Shown here: one piece after another, positions 17,295 through 43,784 of the stretch
How the letters are laid out: each line of letters begins with the position of its first letter
Numbering within the stretch: the stretch's first letter is position 1
Sequence record: MT331608
Direction: 5' to 3' (one strand)
Length of the DNA: 44,569 nucleotides
Source: Escherichia phage SECphi4
The notes under the pieces: model-generated
Databases searched by the model: none
Seen by the model: the letters and a program-made list of their open reading frames with translations, nothing else
What the model was told of the DNA's origin: nothing
Translations under genes and position numbers: made by a program

Positions 17295-17330
17295 AGTCCC
17301 AGTGAGCTAAAACTTACTGGGACTTTTTTA
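17295..17330 (+). terminator. Rho-independent terminator
   Basis: Perfect 9-bp stem AGTCCCAGT/ACTGGGACT with 12-nt loop followed by T6. Confidence 0.55.
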
Positions 17331-17620
17331 TGGATAAGCTAAACGAGTGGTTATTTGCCCTCGCATGTCTGGCAGGCGGCTTCGTAGGCGCACGCATTCA
17401 TGGCGAGGCTACGAAAGGGCCGCTAAACTTCGTTTTATATATCGTGGTCGGCTTCCTGTGTGCCATATTTGGCGCACCGGCTATTGCCGAGTGGGCTGGT
17501 TTGTCGGGGGAGCGCACTGTCGCCGGTTTGGGCTTCGTAACCGCAATCTTCTGGATGCCAATCGCCGACCGGATCAGGGAGACTATTGCGTCGTTCCGAC
17601 TTCCGGGGGGTGCAAAATGA
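17330..17620 (+). CDS. Holin-like membrane protein
   Basis: 96-aa ORF with multiple TM helices immediately upstream of the endolysin gene. Confidence 0.6.
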   Translation: MDKLNEWLFALACLAGGFVGARIHGEATKGPLNFVLYIVVGFLCAIFGAPAIAEWAGLSGERTVAGLGFVTAIFWMPIADRIRETIASFRLPGGAK

Positions 17621-17862
17621 TTATCTCCGTCCTGTTGTTTGTTATCATCGGGGCTTCGTCCCTGTTTAACGTGTATGCGCCGTCCGTCCAGGATGGCATT
17701 TTAGGCCGGGTGTTATATCTGCTAACGGCGATGATCTGCATTATCGGATTGTTGCAGACAGGAGACGTATCAGATACTACCTGGACCGCGTTAATCTGGC
17801 TGTTTGCATTGCGCACACTGCGTAATGCTGTTTTGAATGGGGTAAAACATGCGATTCAGTGA
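17617..17862 (+). CDS. Second small membrane protein of the lysis cassette (holin or antiholin-like)
   Basis: 81-aa ORF starting at an internal ATG, ATGA-coupled to the holin gene; two TM helices. Confidence 0.55.
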   Translation: MIISVLLFVIIGASSLFNVYAPSVQDGILGRVLYLLTAMICIIGLLQTGDVSDTTWTALIWLFALRTLRNAVLNGVKHAIQ

Positions 17863-18340
17863 TAACGGTCTACGATTTACGGCAGCATGGGAGGCTTTCA
17901 GCCCGGTGCCGTATTTCGCGACCAAGAAAGAGCAGGCCCGCGGCCTGTACACCTGGGGTTATGGGCATACCGGCACTAATCCGCCACGAAGCATTACCCG
18001 TGCGGAAGCGCTGGAACTGCTCAAGCGCGATGTGGCGTATGCAGAGGCCTGGGTGAACAAATACGCACATCCGAGCATTAACCAGGCGCAATTCGACGCG
18101 CTGGTTGACCTGGTAATCAATGCCGGTCCGGGTCCGATCGTACCAGATGACGTAGCGAATGATTTCGATGATGCGGTGCGACTGGGCGACTGGGCGAAGG
18201 TCCGTGCTACTCTGCCGCAGTTCCGCAAGCAGGGCGGGGAAGTGCTTAAGGGTTTGGTCCGTCGAGCAATCGGCAGGCAGGCGCTATTCGATGGTAAGCA
18301 GTGGGACGTTGCCGAGAAGATCGGACGTAACGCAGCATAA
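17849..18340 (+). CDS. Endolysin (T4-lysozyme-like, GH24 family)
   Basis: 163 aa with the catalytic Glu context and YGHTG / ITRAEA...LKRDV pattern typical of phage lysozymes. Confidence 0.8.
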   Translation: MRFSDNGLRFTAAWEAFSPVPYFATKKEQARGLYTWGYGHTGTNPPRSITRAEALELLKRDVAYAEAWVNKYAHPSINQAQFDALVDLVINAGPGPIVPDDVANDFDDAVRLGDWAKVRATLPQFRKQGGEVLKGLVRRAIGRQALFDGKQWDVAEKIGRNAA

Positions 18341-18524: not shown

Positions 18525-18532
18525 ACAATCAA

Positions 18533-18556
18533 GCCCGGATAATACCGGGCTTTTTA
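18533..18556 (+). terminator. Rho-independent terminator
   Basis: Stem GCCCGG/CCGGGC with 6-nt loop followed by TTTTTATT. Confidence 0.6.
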
Positions 18557-18619
18557 TTGCTTGACTCGCAACCAACATAGAGGCCATACTGCAACCAATC
18601 AACGAGAGGAGTAATCAAG

Positions 18620-18700
18620 ATGGCACGTAAAGATATTTGGGTATTAGCGATCTGGACCACCGCGGCTTTTATCGGCATGGTTATTTGCGAATTGATATAG
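18620..18700 (+). CDS. Small membrane peptide (26 aa)
   Basis: Strong GAGAGGAG SD 7 nt upstream of the ATG; hydrophobic sequence. Confidence 0.3.
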   Translation: MARKDIWVLAIWTTAAFIGMVICELI

Positions 18701-18712
18701 CCCGCCGCCATA

Positions 18713-18740
18713 TGGACCGTGGTATATTGTCCACGGTCCA
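18713..18740. promoter_or_regulatory. Perfect 10-bp inverted repeat (TGGACCGTGG-N8-CCACGGTCCA), operator-like
   Basis: Palindrome 22 nt upstream of the ATG at 18762; loop contains TATATT; no U run follows. Confidence 0.4.
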
Positions 18741-18761
18741 CTAATCAGGAATTAATTAAAT

Positions 18762-19904
18762 ATGCACCCGCAAACTAAAATTACCGATGAGCAATTGATC
18801 GCAGAAATTCAGGCAGGGACTACGGTTAAAGAGATTGCGAAGAAATACAGCATTGCACTTCGAAATGTCTATATGCGCAAAGCCCGCCTGTCGAAAAAGG
18901 GGATTGGTCATGGCAATGATGCCGTGATCCGTAAGCGCGTTGCCGATGGCTTTGGGGTTAAGCGCGTATCGGCCCTGGTGCGCGGTAATGGCGAAGAGGT
19001 CATGTCGTGGGTCATCACTGAGCAGGACAAGGAGCGCCAACTCGAAGCTATGCGCGCTGTTGTCGAGGGTATGAACAGCGAAATCACACCGGCAGCGCCA
19101 GTAAACGCCCCGCCAGTACCGATCCAGGCGCTAGACTTGCTCAACCTGTACACCGTGTCCGACTTCCACCTGGGCATGTTGGCCTGGGGCGAGGAGACTG
19201 GCGAGGATTGGGATATGGCGATTGCCGAAGACCTGTTCTACCGCTGGTTTGTCGAAGCCTTCGCACGCGCACCGGACGCAGGCACTGCCGTAATTAATAT
19301 CCTTGGTGATATGGCGCATTTTGATAGCCTTGATGCCGTCACACCGGCAAGTGGTCACGTACTGGACGCGGATACCCGCTACCAGAAGCTGGTCCGCTAC
19401 ATGATTCGCATGGTGCGCAACGTGGTGGAACTGGCGCTGCAAAAACACCACAAAGTCAAACTGCTAATCGTCCAGGGGAATCATGACGAGTCTGGCATGA
19501 TTTGGCTGGCTGAAATGTTCAATACGCTGTACGAGAACGAGCCGCGCGTCGATGTGGATACATCCCCGGACGTATACAAAATGGTGCAGCACGGCAAGAC
19601 AACGCTGTTCTTCCACCACGGGCACAAAGCGCGATTCGATGTTATCGAGCAGGTTATGATCGCTAAATTCAGACAGGCGTTCGGGTCGAGCGAATACAGC
19701 TACGCGCACGTAGGCCATTTGCACCACCAGAAGATTGTAGAATCCCGCAACATGATTGTTGAACAGCACCGGACGCTCGCAGCGAAAGACGCCTACGCCA
19801 GTCGTGGCGGTTGGATGAGCGGTCGCAGCGCAAACGTCATCACCTATAGCGCCAACTACGGCGAAGTAGCGCGCTTAACCATTAGCCCGGAAATGTTGAA
19901 GTAA
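18762..19904 (+). CDS. HTH domain fused to a calcineurin-like metallophosphoesterase
   Basis: 380 aa; N-terminal HTH; phosphoesterase motifs DFHLG, GDMAHFD, GNHDE, HHGH and GHLHH. Confidence 0.65.
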   Translation: MHPQTKITDEQLIAEIQAGTTVKEIAKKYSIALRNVYMRKARLSKKGIGHGNDAVIRKRVADGFGVKRVSALVRGNGEEVMSWVITEQDKERQLEAMRAVVEGMNSEITPAAPVNAPPVPIQALDLLNLYTVSDFHLGMLAWGEETGEDWDMAIAEDLFYRWFVEAFARAPDAGTAVINILGDMAHFDSLDAVTPASGHVLDADTRYQKLVRYMIRMVRNVVELALQKHHKVKLLIVQGNHDESGMIWLAEMFNTLYENEPRVDVDTSPDVYKMVQHGKTTLFFHHGHKARFDVIEQVMIAKFRQAFGSSEYSYAHVGHLHHQKIVESRNMIVEQHRTLAAKDAYASRGGWMSGRSANVITYSANYGEVARLTISPEMLK

Positions 19905-19917
19905 CGGCAACCCATAA

Positions 19918-19950
19918 GCCTCCCAGCCTGCCGATTTGGTGGGCTTTTTT
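19918..19950 (+). terminator. Probable rho-independent terminator
   Basis: Imperfect GC-rich hairpin followed by T6 just after the stop at 19904. Confidence 0.4.
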
Positions 19951-20034
19951 GTGCCTGTTATAATCCCCCTTAGATGGCAGGGCCGTCTCCTATGTTGCCG
20001 ATGGTCGGCGCATATGCACAAAAGGGCTTATATC

Positions 20035-20586
20035 ATGGCAGAAATTAAAGTTAAGGGCCGTCGCGCCAAACTGGACGGACGAGTAGCAGTTACCCCTCGC
20101 CGTAAACCAGGCGAGCAAACCGAACATACCAATCTCGGACCTGAGATCGAGTACGGCAAGCGCCGTAAAGGCGGCAAATGTGGGCGCCCTACTGACTACC
20201 GATCTGTTTACTGCGACCAGCTTCGTCGCTATTTTGCCGACGCCGACGCCTGGCAGGTCAATTACTCCGATAAAGGCGCTGCGCAGGTAATCCCTCGCAA
20301 CAAAATGCCAACCTTCGGCAGATTTGCCGCGGAAATCGGTGTGGGCGTCGCTTGCCTGTATCGCTGGGCGCGCGCACATGAGGAGTTCGCCGAGGCGATG
20401 GCGGACGCTATGGAATTGCAGAAAACTTTCCTGATGGAGGCTGGCGGCGTAACCATCGCGGCGGGCTTCGCTACGTTCCTGCTTAAAGCCAACCACGGCG
20501 TACGCGACGATATCCCACTGGATGACGACGAAGATGATAACGGCGACGTCGTTGTCGAACCTACCGGCAAAGGCCAGGGCGAATAA
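20035..20586 (+). CDS. Terminase small subunit
   Basis: 183 aa immediately upstream of TerL; HTH-like segment and acidic C-terminus; start set at the internal ATG (MAEIKVKG). Confidence 0.7.
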   Translation: MAEIKVKGRRAKLDGRVAVTPRRKPGEQTEHTNLGPEIEYGKRRKGGKCGRPTDYRSVYCDQLRRYFADADAWQVNYSDKGAAQVIPRNKMPTFGRFAAEIGVGVACLYRWARAHEEFAEAMADAMELQKTFLMEAGGVTIAAGFATFLLKANHGVRDDIPLDDDEDDNGDVVVEPTGKGQGE

Positions 20587-21971
20587 TGCGTAACTATGCG
20601 GCAGAACACCGCGCACTGGAACGCGCGATCGCAAAGCGCAACCGACCGCCACGCCCAACACGCGTTGCGCAGGCCGTCCGCCTTTACCAGCCTGATTGCT
20701 TGCCGCACCAGGTTGAACTACTGCGCGACACAAAGACTAAAATCCTCGGCCTGTGTTCCGGCTTCGGCGGCGGCAAGTCATGGGTTGCGGCGAGAAAGGT
20801 CATACAGCTTTTAACCCTGAACCCTGGTTATGACGGCATCGTGACCGAACCGACTATTCCACTCCTGGTTAAAATAATGTATCCGGAACTGGAGAAGGCA
20901 TTCGACGAGGCTGGATTCAGGTGGAAGTTCAATAAGCAGGACAAGATCTACAACGTGCTGGTGAAAGGCAAATGGACCCGCGTTATATGTGAATCAATGG
21001 AGAATTATACCCGCCTGATCGGGGTAAACGCCGCGTGGATTGTTGCCGATGAATTCGACACCACTAAGCAAGACGTCGCGCTGGCGGCATATCACAAATT
21101 GCTCGGTCGTCTGCGTGCGGGCTTTGTCCGCCAGTTCGTCATCGTGTCCACCCCGGAAGGCTACCGGGCGATGTACCAGATTTTCGAAGTGGAGAAGGAT
21201 AGCCAGAAACGTTTGATCCGGGCGAAGACTACCGATAACCACCACCTACCGGCAGACTTCATCGACACGCTGCGCCGCCAGTACCCGGCGAACCTGATTG
21301 ACGCGTACTTGAACGGCCTGTTTGTAAACCTTACGTCTGGCGCGGTTTACAAGATGTTCAATCGTGAGGAGAACGCCAGCACCGAAGAAGTGCAGCCGGA
21401 AGACACGCTGATTATCGGTATGGACTTTAACGTCACGAAGATGGCGGCGGTCGTGTACGTCAGACGGCAGCGCATCGCCGAAAACAAGGAGTTCCGCGAC
21501 GAGATCCACGCAGTGGATGAGTTTGTGGACCTGTTTGATACCCCGGCTATGATTGAGGCGATCGAGGAGCGATACCCAGATCATTGCGCTGCCGGTCGTG
21601 TTGTCGTGTACCCGGATAGCAGCGGCAAGTCTCGCAAGACTGTCAACGCATCATCGTCCGATATAGCGCAACTGGAAGACGCGGGCTTCGAGGTGGAGTA
21701 TGACAGTGTTAACCCACCTGTGAAAGACCGATTGATCGCGATGAATACGATGATGTGCAACTCGAAGGGCGTGCGCCAGTATTTTGTCAACCTGGATAAA
21801 TGCCCTACACTAGCGAAATGTCTGGAACAGCAGGTTTACGACCTGAAGAAAGGCGAGCCGGATAAAACCGCCGGGGCGGACCACATGAACGATGCCGCGG
21901 GCTATCCAATTGCGCACCTGTTCCCAGTGATTCGCCCAATCGCCGTTGTTCCAACTGTAGACTTCTACTAA
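20586..21971 (+). CDS. Terminase large subunit
   Basis: 461 aa with Walker A-like GFGGGKS; position upstream of the portal gene. Confidence 0.85.
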   Translation: MRNYAAEHRALERAIAKRNRPPRPTRVAQAVRLYQPDCLPHQVELLRDTKTKILGLCSGFGGGKSWVAARKVIQLLTLNPGYDGIVTEPTIPLLVKIMYPELEKAFDEAGFRWKFNKQDKIYNVLVKGKWTRVICESMENYTRLIGVNAAWIVADEFDTTKQDVALAAYHKLLGRLRAGFVRQFVIVSTPEGYRAMYQIFEVEKDSQKRLIRAKTTDNHHLPADFIDTLRRQYPANLIDAYLNGLFVNLTSGAVYKMFNREENASTEEVQPEDTLIIGMDFNVTKMAAVVYVRRQRIAENKEFRDEIHAVDEFVDLFDTPAMIEAIEERYPDHCAAGRVVVYPDSSGKSRKTVNASSSDIAQLEDAGFEVEYDSVNPPVKDRLIAMNTMMCNSKGVRQYFVNLDKCPTLAKCLEQQVYDLKKGEPDKTAGADHMNDAAGYPIAHLFPVIRPIAVVPTVDFY

Positions 21972-40669: not shown

Positions 40670-40972
40670 ATGGCTTTCGGAGTCGAAACATGGGACGAAC
40701 AAGGGCGACCAAACAACTACGGAATCAAACCGGTGTCGGTTGTCGGAATTATTAAACTGGCACAAGGTCAAACATCGGGGGCGTGGGCGTTCGATATTCC
40801 GTCAGGGATGAAAGTAGGTTTTGCGGTTACGCTGGACGTTGGCGGCACTACGGTCGGTAGGGCGATCCGTGCCAGCGGGAACACGATAACAGTGTCCGCG
40901 GCAAACAGCGCCGGTATTGGAAACTACCCGGCGTCAGAATGTGAAGTAGTAGTTTTTGTGGAGAAAGCGTAA
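40670..40972 (+). CDS. Hypothetical tail-associated protein
   Basis: 100-aa ORF with SD, between the J-like and fibre genes. Confidence 0.45.
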   Translation: MAFGVETWDEQGRPNNYGIKPVSVVGIIKLAQGQTSGAWAFDIPSGMKVGFAVTLDVGGTTVGRAIRASGNTITVSAANSAGIGNYPASECEVVVFVEKA

Positions 40973-40974
40973 AA

Positions 40975-41646
40975 ATGGCAAACTTCGGCGCGTTAATCGA
41001 TAACAACAACGGCAACCCATTCGTCACGCCAAACTCAACGCCGTTCGTCCTCTACGCTAAGGTGTCGGCAAATTCAGTGGACGCCGGTGCTGATTATAAA
41101 ACAGCAAGCGGGGGCGTGGATATCCCCTCGAACTATCCGGCAATGGTTTTCATGCGGTCAAACAACCGTTGCGTCCTGGCGGCGTCACGATCAGGTAATC
41201 GGATTATATTTAGCGGAAGCATTCAGGGGCAGAATAACCCACATTTTACCGTCACGGCGTACATATTCGCGCGGTTCCCGCAACCGCTGCCAAAATGGGG
41301 CTTTGCTATTTGGGACGCCAGCGGGACTTGCATACTAACCAACGAAAGCAAGGTGCTCACCGATCTAGTAACTGTCGGCAGCTTCGGTAATAGCGGAGGG
41401 ATTAACATAGACCAGACGCTGCCTGGTAAGTACGCGGTATCACCTATGTTAATGGGCGCTACTCTGATCCAGATCTTTGTACAGGGGCAGCCACAGATTA
41501 TCCAGATCTCGGCGGGGGCAGGGGCTTACGACAACGGAAGCGGCACTCGTATTAACGCAGTCGCTACGCAGGCTGGGTCTGGTAGCATCGCCGGGTATCA
41601 AAACACCGGCGTTGCGCTGACCGCAATTAACGTTGATGGGATATGA
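40975..41646 (+). CDS. Hypothetical tail-associated protein
   Basis: 223-aa Gly/Ser/Asn-rich ORF. Confidence 0.45.
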   Translation: MANFGALIDNNNGNPFVTPNSTPFVLYAKVSANSVDAGADYKTASGGVDIPSNYPAMVFMRSNNRCVLAASRSGNRIIFSGSIQGQNNPHFTVTAYIFARFPQPLPKWGFAIWDASGTCILTNESKVLTDLVTVGSFGNSGGINIDQTLPGKYAVSPMLMGATLIQIFVQGQPQIIQISAGAGAYDNGSGTRINAVATQAGSGSIAGYQNTGVALTAINVDGI

Positions 41647-41670
41647 AAAAGCCCCTTTCGGGGCTTATTT
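41646..41670. terminator. Bidirectional rho-independent terminator between convergent genes
   Basis: Stem AGCCCC/GGGGCT with TTTC loop flanked by an A run and a T run. Confidence 0.6.
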
Positions 41671-41886
41671 GCAGGTTGTGCTTTTGAAGTGGTCAACCGA
41701 CACATACTGGAAGTTGAATGGGTATCCCGCCCGTAACATTTTATGACCGTTAACGTCTGCAACCCCAAACACCGGGACCGAGTATTCCATGCCGCTATTA
41801 ATATATGTCGCGTCGCAGATTTTAGACGGCATATTGGCGCAACCGGACAAAAAAAAAGCCGCACAAATCATAATTAAAGTTTTCAT
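41665..41886 (-). CDS. Small lipoprotein (73 aa), candidate superinfection-exclusion protein
   Basis: Signal peptide MKTLIMICAAFFLSGC with lipobox LSGC; opposite strand to the flanking tail genes. Confidence 0.6.
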   Translation of the reverse strand: MKTLIMICAAFFLSGCANMPSKICDATYINSGMEYSVPVFGVADVNGHKMLRAGYPFNFQYVSVDHFKSTTCK

Positions 41887-41916
41887 GGTATCATCTCTTA
41901 TATTTGGTTGAGTTTT

Positions 41917-41945
41917 AGTATCGCACTGCTTAACCATTAATGCAA
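41917..41945 (-). promoter_or_regulatory. Candidate promoter (TTGCAT-N17-GATACT) with an ATTGGTTGCA copy
   Basis: Motif at 41941..41950 on the complementary strand, upstream of the lipoprotein gene. Confidence 0.35.
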
Positions 41946-41966
41946 CCAATTTATGAGGATTTAGCA

Positions 41967-43784
41967 ATGGCGGCGGGAACATTATCCGTAACGAATAACA
42001 GCAAGACAGTTGTAGGGGTTGGCACGACGTTCACCGCGTTTAAAGCTGGCGACTTCTTAACTCTGGTGGTGGGGCAAGTGCCTTACACTGTTGCGATCGC
42101 GTCCGTAGAAAGCGACACCGCGCTTACGCTGGTGCTGCCGTTCGACGGCCCAACGGCAGCAGGCCTTGCGTGGGATGGCGTTAAGCGCGATACCATGTCG
42201 CTGGCAACGATGGGCGTAACAGTACAGGCACAGAAAGCGTTGCGCTTGATGCTCGCGGACGAAAACAACTGGCGTGCGATATTCGGAGACGAAGAAGAAA
42301 TCACGGTAACGCTGCCGAACGGGCAAGTAATGCAGGGTATGTCGTGGGGCTATCTGTCGCAATTGATGAAGGAAATAGACCCCGTTGAGATGCGCAACCT
42401 GCAACAAAAAACCCGCGAGTCTGAGTTAGCCACGTGGCATTATCGGCAGGAGGTCGAAGGCTTTAAGAACGACACCAATTCCATCAAGGACCAGACAAAC
42501 CAGATTAAGGAGGATACGCAGGCTATCCACGACGCCACCAATGCCATCAAGGACCAGACAAACCAGATTAAGGCTGACACCGGCGTTATTCGCGACGAGG
42601 CCAATGCCGCGAATGCTGAAGCGCAAGCCGCCAGCACTGCCGCGCAGGGATTTCGCGATCAGGCCGAAGAATTGGTGCAAAGCATAAACCCCGACAATCT
42701 GCTAACCAAATCCGGCAACCTGGCGGGCCTGGCTGACCGCGCCGCTTCATGGCTTAATATTCGCCCGATTGGACCTACTCCGCTCGCTGGCGATCCTGTT
42801 GACGATTATGACGCCACCACGAAGCGTTGGGTGCAGAATACGCTAAACTCTGGCGTAATCGGACAAAGCTGGGGTGTTAAGAACGTAAATGTTAGCACCC
42901 CAGAGCCAGGCGTTAACGTCAGTGGCGGAATGTTGGTGTCTGAATACTCCAACCCGGAACGCAGTCTTTTTGCTCGCCTATACTCGAACACTGTATGGGG
43001 TTATCCTGGAGCGGCTATTATTGAGGCGGAAGGTAGTAACAAGCACACATACCAGTTTTTTGAAGACGGCACTGTTGATTTCAGGAAATCCGGTAATTCA
43101 AACCGAGTCAGCATGCACACATCCACCTCAAGTTGGTATAACGTCACAACGGCGTCACGCACCGACTTGACATCAGGTGGGGTTGACAGAATTCTGGAAG
43201 CAGAGGCGTCGGATATTTTAGTACTGGGGTACACTATTGGTGCGTCACGTCCTGACGGCTACCCAACAAAAGTAGGCTTTCATCAATATATTTGGCCTAC
43301 GGAATCATACAACTTCGCTTCAGCGGTAATCTCAATTGGTGCGGACAATGGTTGGTGTAAATTCCTTTTTGGTGTGGACGGGGTGATCTGGGGGTCTACA
43401 GATCAAGGTGATTTTTCCTACACCCGTAACGGTGTGTCCGACTCGCGTGTTAAGCACGGCATAGAGCCAACAACCGTTGATAAGGCGTGGAGTAACTTGA
43501 CATCCCTACAGTTTGTAACGTTTGTTTATAATAACGATGAGCAGGAGCGCCAGCGACGTGGCATTATCGCGCAGCAAGCAGAGACTGTAGATAAGCTATA
43601 TGTAAAAACAAGGGTTTATCCTGGTAAAAATACAGGGGACTCTATGGTTGAACAGAAGGAACTGGATACTATGCCATTGCTTCTTGACACCATGCATGTT
43701 GTGCAAACGCTGATGCTGAAGATCGAGGCGATGGAAGCAGAGATTGCCACCCTTAGAGAAGAAGTGGCGGAGTTGAAGAAATAA
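41967..43784 (+). CDS. Side tail fibre with coiled-coil repeats and probable C-terminal intramolecular chaperone domain
   Basis: 605 aa; tandem 21-aa repeats (T-N-x-I-K-D-Q-T-N-Q-I-K); C-terminal SDSRVK...GIIAQ motifs resemble the S74-type chaperone domain. Confidence 0.7.
   Translation: MAAGTLSVTNNSKTVVGVGTTFTAFKAGDFLTLVVGQVPYTVAIASVESDTALTLVLPFDGPTAAGLAWDGVKRDTMSLATMGVTVQAQKALRLMLADENNWRAIFGDEEEITVTLPNGQVMQGMSWGYLSQLMKEIDPVEMRNLQQKTRESELATWHYRQEVEGFKNDTNSIKDQTNQIKEDTQAIHDATNAIKDQTNQIKADTGVIRDEANAANAEAQAASTAAQGFRDQAEELVQSINPDNLLTKSGNLAGLADRAASWLNIRPIGPTPLAGDPVDDYDATTKRWVQNTLNSGVIGQSWGVKNVNVSTPEPGVNVSGGMLVSEYSNPERSLFARLYSNTVWGYPGAAIIEAEGSNKHTYQFFEDGTVDFRKSGNSNRVSMHTSTSSWYNVTTASRTDLTSGGVDRILEAEASDILVLGYTIGASRPDGYPTKVGFHQYIWPTESYNFASAVISIGADNGWCKFLFGVDGVIWGSTDQGDFSYTRNGVSDSRVKHGIEPTTVDKAWSNLTSLQFVTFVYNNDEQERQRRGIIAQQAETVDKLYVKTRVYPGKNTGDSMVEQKELDTMPLLLDTMHVVQTLMLKIEAMEAEIATLREEVAELKK
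42471..42590. repeat. Tandem 63-bp repeat inside the fibre gene
   Basis: Repeated aat(t/g)ccatcaaggaccagacaaaccagattaagg at about 42477 and 42540. Confidence 0.8.

Follow-up and report, generated by a model that had tools for sequence, protein, structure and literature searches.

A helix-turn-helix metallophosphoesterase of Dhillonviruses and T1-like coliphages as a candidate stand-alone DNase

Among the metallophosphoesterases (MPEs) of phages, the A1 protein of phage T5 is both necessary and sufficient for degradation of the host DNA, and was likened by its authors to nucleases of double-strand break repair and to the proofreading subunits of polymerases (bioRxiv 10.64898/2026.04.02.716235). 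A second phage MPE, gp48 of the Cluster A mycobacteriophage A10ZJ24, has phosphodiesterase activity, is toxic, is expressed early, and disrupts the host genomic DNA; it is needed in M. tuberculosis but not in M. smegmatis (PMC12287305). Both differ in some respects from the protein analyzed here, an MPE that carries a helix-turn-helix (HTH) at its N-terminus. A1 is a pre-early protein of 555 aa that is restricted to the Demerecviridae and acts beside a separate DNA-binding protein, A2, while no HTH fusion has been reported for gp48, which resembles our protein as a phage MPE.

The window analyzed here is the whole stretch of 44,569 nucleotides from Escherichia phage SECphi4 (MT331608). It belongs to a Dhillonvirus, an HK578-like lytic coliphage, and the 5-kb stretch around the MPE gene is 93-94% identical to that of many such phages. 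The original prediction, made from this sequence, had placed the gene for a protein of 380 aa between the lysis genes and TerS. The open reading frame was confirmed at 18762..19904 (+), with an ATG start, and its location was borne out by the matches of the neighboring genes to PHROG families, with which the annotated relatives agree: a holin (17330-17620) and an endolysin (17849-18340) lie on one side, and TerS (20035-20586) and TerL (20586-21971) on the other. A terminator scan detected an intrinsic terminator on either side of the gene. The first, at 18531..18552 (+), consists of AAGCCCGG-loop-CCGGGCTT followed by a T-run; it marks the end of the lysis operon and is kept in all Dhillonvirus upstream regions that were aligned. 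The second, at 19925..19945 (+), marks the end of the MPE transcription unit upstream of terS. The homolog of phage T1, gp16, is likewise flanked on both sides by annotated terminators.

The protein is a member of PHROG 704, a family labelled "DNA repair exonuclease", to which it showed a full-length HMM match (E=1.7e-160; residues 5-380 against positions 2-390 of the 390 in the profile). The closest protein among those listed was that of Escherichia phage PEC14, at 99.7% identity. Homologs were found in 2061 phage records, in 1677 of which they cover at least 80% of the query, and an exhaustive HMMER search returned 4644 representatives of 50%-identity clusters at E<=0.001. Identity to the window protein is at least 95% for homologs from Dhillonviruses, about 75% for those from Kagunavirus and Jerseyvirus, and about 45% for those from the Drexlerviridae, including T1 gp16 (ST16, 40822-41955), whose annotation and position are the same as those of the Tunavirus match. 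Further homologs are encoded by Webervirus and by phages of Vibrio, Campylobacter, Ruegeria, and Flavobacterium, and those of the last 4 hosts were also assigned to PHROG 704. Matches in assemblies labelled as bacterial lay on contigs of 42-45 kb, which are phage genomes.

T1 gp16 and the other members of PHROG 704 share the architecture of the window protein (HTH, beta-hairpin/helix, MPE) and show no substantive difference from it. The gene is an ordinary, already catalogued core gene of T1-like and HK578-like coliphages. Near-identical copies are present in well over a hundred sequenced Dhillonviruses, the family occurs in more than 2000 phage genomes, and among the Drexlerviridae the MPE gene is a persistent one, with 508 of 522 phages carrying it (PMC13164509). 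The functional label of PHROG 704 is a bioinformatic annotation, of which the term "exonuclease" is plausible; a full-text literature search found no biochemical or genetic study of any member of the family.

A complete set of MPE motifs had been claimed for this protein, and all of them were present: SDFHLG, GDMAHFD, GNHDE, HHGH, and GHLHH. These correspond to motifs I-V of the calcineurin-like metallophosphoesterase superfamily (DxH, GD, GNH[D/E], H, and GHxH), and the beta-sandwich MPE fold typical of this superfamily was found as well. Matches to the Pfam models Metallophos and Metallophos_2 scored just under the gathering scores, suggesting that PHROG 704 is a divergent branch of the MPEs. 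In a family alignment of 71 sequences at 32-81% identity, residues D134, H136, G182, D183, N240, H241, H286, G318, and H321 were invariant, and H319, H186, D188, D242, H285, and H288 were conserved in at least 90% of the members. T194 was invariant too; it lies inside a family-specific loop, TPxSGHxLDxD (residues 194-204). An incomplete active site, which the original prediction had named as a finding that would speak against it, was not seen, as the metal-ligand motifs are invariant across these 71 diverse members.

An AlphaFold2 model built on the same alignment (pLDDT 91.2, pTM 0.79) divides the protein into 3 parts. The N-terminal part is a tri-helical HTH (residues 9-45; 18786..18896 (+)), with helices at residues 9-17, 22-28, and 33-45. 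It is followed by a long beta-hairpin (residues 64-88) and a helix (residues 90-107), encoded at 18951..19082 (+), where the core conserved across the family begins; in distant relatives, the matched region mostly begins at query residues 55-80. In a phmmer search against the PDB, matches of repeat proteins to residues 67-100 were dismissed as spurious. The MPE domain, recognized by motifs I-V and the loop TPxSGHxLDxD, spans residues 121-380 (19122..19901 (+)), and runs from approximately residue 121 to the C-terminus in the model, which showed no extra C-terminal domain.

The HTH had likewise been proposed from the sequence, and is supported by the modelled helices together with Pfam and structure matches at the level of the family. 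For the window protein itself, the match to Pfam GerE was weak and below threshold (E=0.03), and the family profile matched the GerE structure 1fse at E=0.02. Across the family, HTH models of several types were matched, namely LysR, sigma-70 region 4, Fis, GerE, and transposase-type models, including HTH_1 in 15 members, Sigma70_r4_2 in 12, HTH_8 in 11, and GerE in 7. This variety suggests that an HTH has been retained while its type was exchanged. The Campylobacter phage homolog has no HTH and begins at the beta-hairpin/helix core.

The MPE superfamily includes nucleases, cyclic-nucleotide phosphodiesterases, and protein phosphatases, and the structural neighbors of the model were used to place the protein among them. 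The highest values were obtained for the 3'-5' proofreading exonuclease PolD DP1 (16.0), SbcD (15.0), and Mre11 (15.0), followed by LpxH (13.7), MJ0936 (13.5), Rv0805/Icc (12.1), and PP5/PP1 (about 9). A Foldseek search had been put forward as one means to distinguish an Mre11-like from a CpdA/Icc-like protein. It did so in part: Mre11 and DP1 came out on top, but their E-values of about 1e-8 are in the same range as that of Rv0805 and do not separate it. From the neighbor values and the Foldseek order, the protein leans towards the DNA-nuclease branch, by a modest margin. A search of BFVD returned only uncharacterized viral homologs. As the original prediction had rightly stated, sequence alone cannot settle the substrate.

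The presence of SbcD and Mre11 among the top structural neighbors raises the question of whether the protein is a bona fide Mre11/SbcD ortholog, which would work with a Rad50/SbcC ATPase of the phage or the host in end resection linked to packaging. Its motifs I (SDFHLG) and II (GDxxH) resemble those of Mre11/SbcD, which we regard as a lead rather than a test. The best MPE match of the family profile in the PDB was indeed the Mre11/SbcD of T. maritima, yet this match was weak (E=0.18), and hhalign comparisons of the profile to single sequences gave only motif-sized matches for E. coli SbcD (probability 2.4%), E. coli CpdA (4.1%), and lambda NinI (0.8%), and so do not tell these 3 apart. T4 gp47 and E. 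coli SbcD belong to PHROG 100 and are found in neither PHROG 704 nor PHROG 284, and the window protein had no match to PHROG 100 at E<=0.01. Mre11, SbcD, and T4 gp47 carry a C-terminal capping or DNA-binding domain, which is absent from the window protein; this has an N-terminal HTH instead. No gene for Rad50/SbcC was found in the fully annotated Dhillonvirus Bas85, the HK1 locus, or T1. Membership of the Mre11/SbcD family is contradicted by these results, and we consider orthology distinctly improbable.

A role as a second-messenger phosphodiesterase was also weighed. Such an enzyme would act against host defense by degrading cAMP/cGMP, cyclic oligonucleotides, or similar signals like those of CBASS, Pycsar, and type III CRISPR systems. 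The protein was not found to be closer to the class III cNMP phosphodiesterases CpdA and Rv0805 than to other MPE branches. The CpdA/Icc/Rv0805 enzymes have no HTH, rank below the nuclease MPEs structurally, and gave no family-model match to the window protein, whereas a DNA-binding HTH is conserved in PHROG 704. The gene is moreover part of the persistent core, not a variable accessory gene. PADLOC returned no match for the window protein, T1 gp16, or the Campylobacter homolog, and the only NCBIfam match was that of the Campylobacter protein to DS9_1 (E=0.048), far under the cut-off. We therefore hold this reading to be very unlikely.

Still less probable, to the point of being scarcely credible, is a lambda NinI-like protein phosphatase acting on Ser/Thr or Tyr. 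Such enzymes belong to the same superfamily as PHROG 704, and a few GenBank records call homologs "serine/threonine protein phosphatase". However, neither the signature motifs nor the nearest structural neighbors of the window protein were those of PPP-type phosphatases, and the grouping with phage protein phosphatases that the original prediction had allowed for was not found in this lambda NinI-like comparison. As for the cyclic-nucleotide reading and for that of a pure regulator (below), the evidence against a phosphatase is specific. A role as a polymerase subunit was rejected as implausible: identity to archaeal PolD DP1 and the eukaryotic polymerase B-subunits is only 13%, and no PolD large subunit is present here. 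No DNA polymerase is annotated in T1, and that of Dhillonviruses is of family A.

T5 A1 maps to PHROG 1745 only, and the window protein did not match the A1 profile. Homology to A1 was rejected, as an hhalign comparison to an alignment of 26 A1 sequences covered nothing but the HTH region at the N-terminus, with a probability of 25%. Since the profile comparison gave no specific relationship between PHROG 704 and A1 beyond the superfamily, T5 A1 is kept as an analogy only. Among the relatives of A1, P0344, P0345, P0347, P0370, and P0382 have N-terminal HTHs according to Pfam (PF13384, PF02796/PF13560, and PF13936), suggesting that the combination of HTH and MPE arose in a second, unrelated family of phage MPEs.

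The original prediction had linked the protein to packaging, on account of the adjacent terS. This adjacency was found only in Dhillonviruses, however. In T1-like phages, the MPE gene lies upstream of the lysis cassette, such that T1 gp16 is beside the lysis genes and far from terS, and the Jerseyvirus homolog is located among tail genes. The gene follows the primase-helicase gene in Jedunavirus, precedes genes for a dNMP kinase and a lysozyme in Alteromonas phage P24, adjoins a DNA methylase gene in Ruegeria phage DSS3-P1, and adjoins genes for a ligase and a Holliday-junction resolvase in Campylobacter phages. No partner gene was conserved across the lineages examined. Given this variable context, a role in packaging is unsupported. 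The theme that recurs is a position at the end of the DNA-metabolism module, or at its border with the lysis genes.

The Campylobacter context bears on another possibility, that of a nucleic-acid end-healing phosphoesterase (a 3'-phosphatase or 2',3'-cyclic phosphodiesterase) that cooperates with further repair enzymes of the phage. In bacterial Pnkp, for instance, end healing during RNA repair is carried out by the MPE domain. In addition to the ligase and resolvase genes next to the Campylobacter homolog, the gene directly downstream in some Drexlerviridae is annotated as a polynucleotide kinase (PMC13164509). This argument is weakened because the "polynucleotide kinase" of these phages is a HAD 3'-phosphatase, and we regard end healing as unlikely. 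The T1 protein with this annotation (ST64; L080 4948-5478) contains a HAD-type PNKP 3'-phosphatase domain (PF25109, E=7e-17) and no kinase domain according to Pfam. Its namesake in Bas85 (L081 25303-25773) has a weak match to a HAD phosphatase (Acid_phosphat_B, E=1.7e-4), which is below threshold.

Upstream of the gene, a perfect 10-bp inverted repeat had been reported at a distance of 22 nt. The repeat, at 18713..18740, is real: TGGACCGTGG (18713-18722) and CCACGGTCCA (18731-18740) enclose an 8-nt loop, TATATTGT, and the ATG follows after a gap of 21 nt, starting 22 nt past the last base of the repeat. Across the whole window, perfect 10-bp repeats with loops of 3-12 nt are unremarkable (2 against 0.63 expected), yet when the 80-nt region directly before the gene was shuffled 300 times, no shuffle matched it. 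Folding of the repeat as RNA would yield -20.9 kcal/mol (z=-2.4). Since no T-run follows, the repeat was not taken for an intrinsic terminator. The second perfect 10-bp inverted repeat of the window, TGCTGCCGTT with a 9-nt loop, lies at 42133-42161.

The conservation of the repeat was traced in 8 aligned Dhillonvirus upstream regions and in 21 loci that comprise 16 unique variants. Of these variants, 10 have kept 8 or more matching pairs, 2 (L009 and L023) show a weaker, different pairing, and 4 (L016, L018, L019, and L007) have lost the repeat; it is absent from Over9000 (L008) as well. The right-arm base opposite an invariant T takes all 4 values among the variants, without compensation. In other lineages, inverted repeats that differ from this one and are significant precede the gene at a short distance (L056, L050, L058, L077, L046, and L071); in the first 4 loci, they sit about 20 nt upstream of the ATG; shuffles matched the repeat of L056 in 2 of 300 cases and that of L046 in 1 of 300. 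One such repeat, TAAATAAGA-CTCT-TCTTATTTA, overlaps a TTAAAT -10-like element, and another reads ATTTATCCGAT-N12-ATCAGATAAAT.

The protein could primarily be a transcription regulator, for example a late-gene switch or one that controls its own gene by way of the palindrome; the MPE would then serve as a sensor or as an accessory module. The HTH is of the GerE, sigma-70 region 4, or LysR type, the gene often lies at the junction of the DNA-metabolism module with the lysis or packaging module, and significant repeats are found just upstream in the window and in 2 other lineages. Nonetheless, the half-site is not enriched across the genome (5 matches against 11 expected), the Dhillonviruses without the repeat encode an MPE protein that is 97-98% identical, and a significant repeat upstream is lacking in most other lineages, T1, Jerseyvirus, and Jedunavirus among them. 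For these 3 reasons, an operator for the protein's own HTH was rejected as a general mechanism. In addition, the Campylobacter homolog has no HTH to bind with, and terS has a perfect extended -10 element of its own. As the catalytic residues are invariant family-wide, which points to an enzyme, we disfavor a regulator and consider it quite unlikely.

Another clue to the repeat is the sequence between it and the lysis terminator. A promoter scan detected a sigma-70-like promoter, P1, at 18561..18590 (+) (TTGACT, 18 nt, CATACT; 9/12 matches), followed by the micro-ORF that it would drive, at 18620..18700 (+) with a strong Shine-Dalgarno sequence, which encodes a hydrophobic peptide of 26 aa, MARKDIWVLAIWTTAAFIGMVICELI. 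The peptide had no PHROG match, but the differences in relatives are mostly synonymous, suggesting a real gene. P1 is part of an insertion that some Dhillonviruses lack, and the whole unit of P1 and micro-ORF (18561-18700) is missing from some of them. The repeat is present exactly where P1, with or without the micro-ORF, or another ORF separates the lysis terminator from the gene, and absent where this terminator directly abuts the MPE gene. As only about 5 lineages are independent, this co-occurrence is suggestive rather than established. The repeat is no conserved control element of the MPE gene. We read it as a hairpin that is restricted to some lineages and belongs with the upstream insertion, and that perhaps acts on read-through RNA from P1. 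Small membrane proteins are encoded directly upstream of the MPE gene in Jerseyvirus LPSE1 (gp46; L082 3747-3926) and in Kagunavirus-like loci (L024-L065), similar to the micro-ORF of the window. Small accessory genes may be inserted preferentially at this site.

The MPE gene itself appears to have a proximal promoter. An extended -10-like element, TGGTATATT (consensus TGnTATAAT), is located at 18720..18728 (+), partly in the left arm and partly in the loop of the repeat. The surrounding CCGTG[G/A]TATATTG is invariant in the 8 aligned Dhillonvirus upstream sequences, and each of the 16 unique variants contains TATATT. A two-hexamer promoter scan did not flag TGGTATATT, so that its function as a promoter is read from the motif; transcription would start inside the right arm of the repeat. 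A Shine-Dalgarno-like AGGAA lies at 18747..18751 (+), 10 nt before the ATG, and AATCAGGAA is kept in most of the upstream sequences that were aligned. The only perfect extended -10 consensus of the window, TGTTATAAT, lies at 19956-19964, between the MPE terminator and terS; it is likely the sigma-70 promoter of the packaging/head operon and has no obvious -35 element.

Taking these results together, our main reading, at a probability of roughly 55%, is that the protein is a stand-alone, HTH-tethered binuclear-metal DNase of PHROG 704, which is autonomously transcribed and independent of Rad50/SbcC. The binuclear-metal phosphodiesterase would most probably act on DNA, as a Mn2+/Mg2+-dependent exo- or endonuclease. 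The N-terminal HTH would hold the enzyme on DNA, and no Rad50/SbcC ATPase partner would be needed. The gene would form its own transcription unit between the 2 terminators, probably read from the conserved extended -10 promoter TGGTATATT by the host sigma-70 polymerase. With its own putative promoter, the timing of the MPE would be uncoupled from that of the flanking lysis and packaging operons. In lytic siphoviruses of the T1-like, HK578-like, Jersey-like, and many other groups, PHROG 704 would then be part of the core of DNA metabolism. The most likely role of such a DNase would be degradation of the host chromosome, for which T5 A1 and mycobacteriophage gp48 provide the analogy, or the trimming and removal of intermediates of phage replication and recombination.

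A more specific proposal, which we put forward tentatively and consider doubtful, is that PHROG 704 comprises HTH-guided, Rad50-independent host-chromosome DNases of T1-like, Dhillon-, and Jersey-type siphoviruses, as functional analogs of T5 A1. A host-DNA-degradation function of T1 was mapped by classical genetics and is not known to have been assigned to a sequenced gene, and the PHROG 704 proteins might correspond to it. Of the non-structural genes of T1-like phages, the MPE gene is one of the most persistent, and it is labelled as a "DNA repair exonuclease". If its product is indeed a destroyer of the host chromosome, or an Mre11-like nuclease that works without Rad50, a core step of infection would be explained. 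T1-like phages are common laboratory contaminants, candidates for therapy, and standard test phages for defense systems, some of which sense the products of phage-induced chromosome breakdown.
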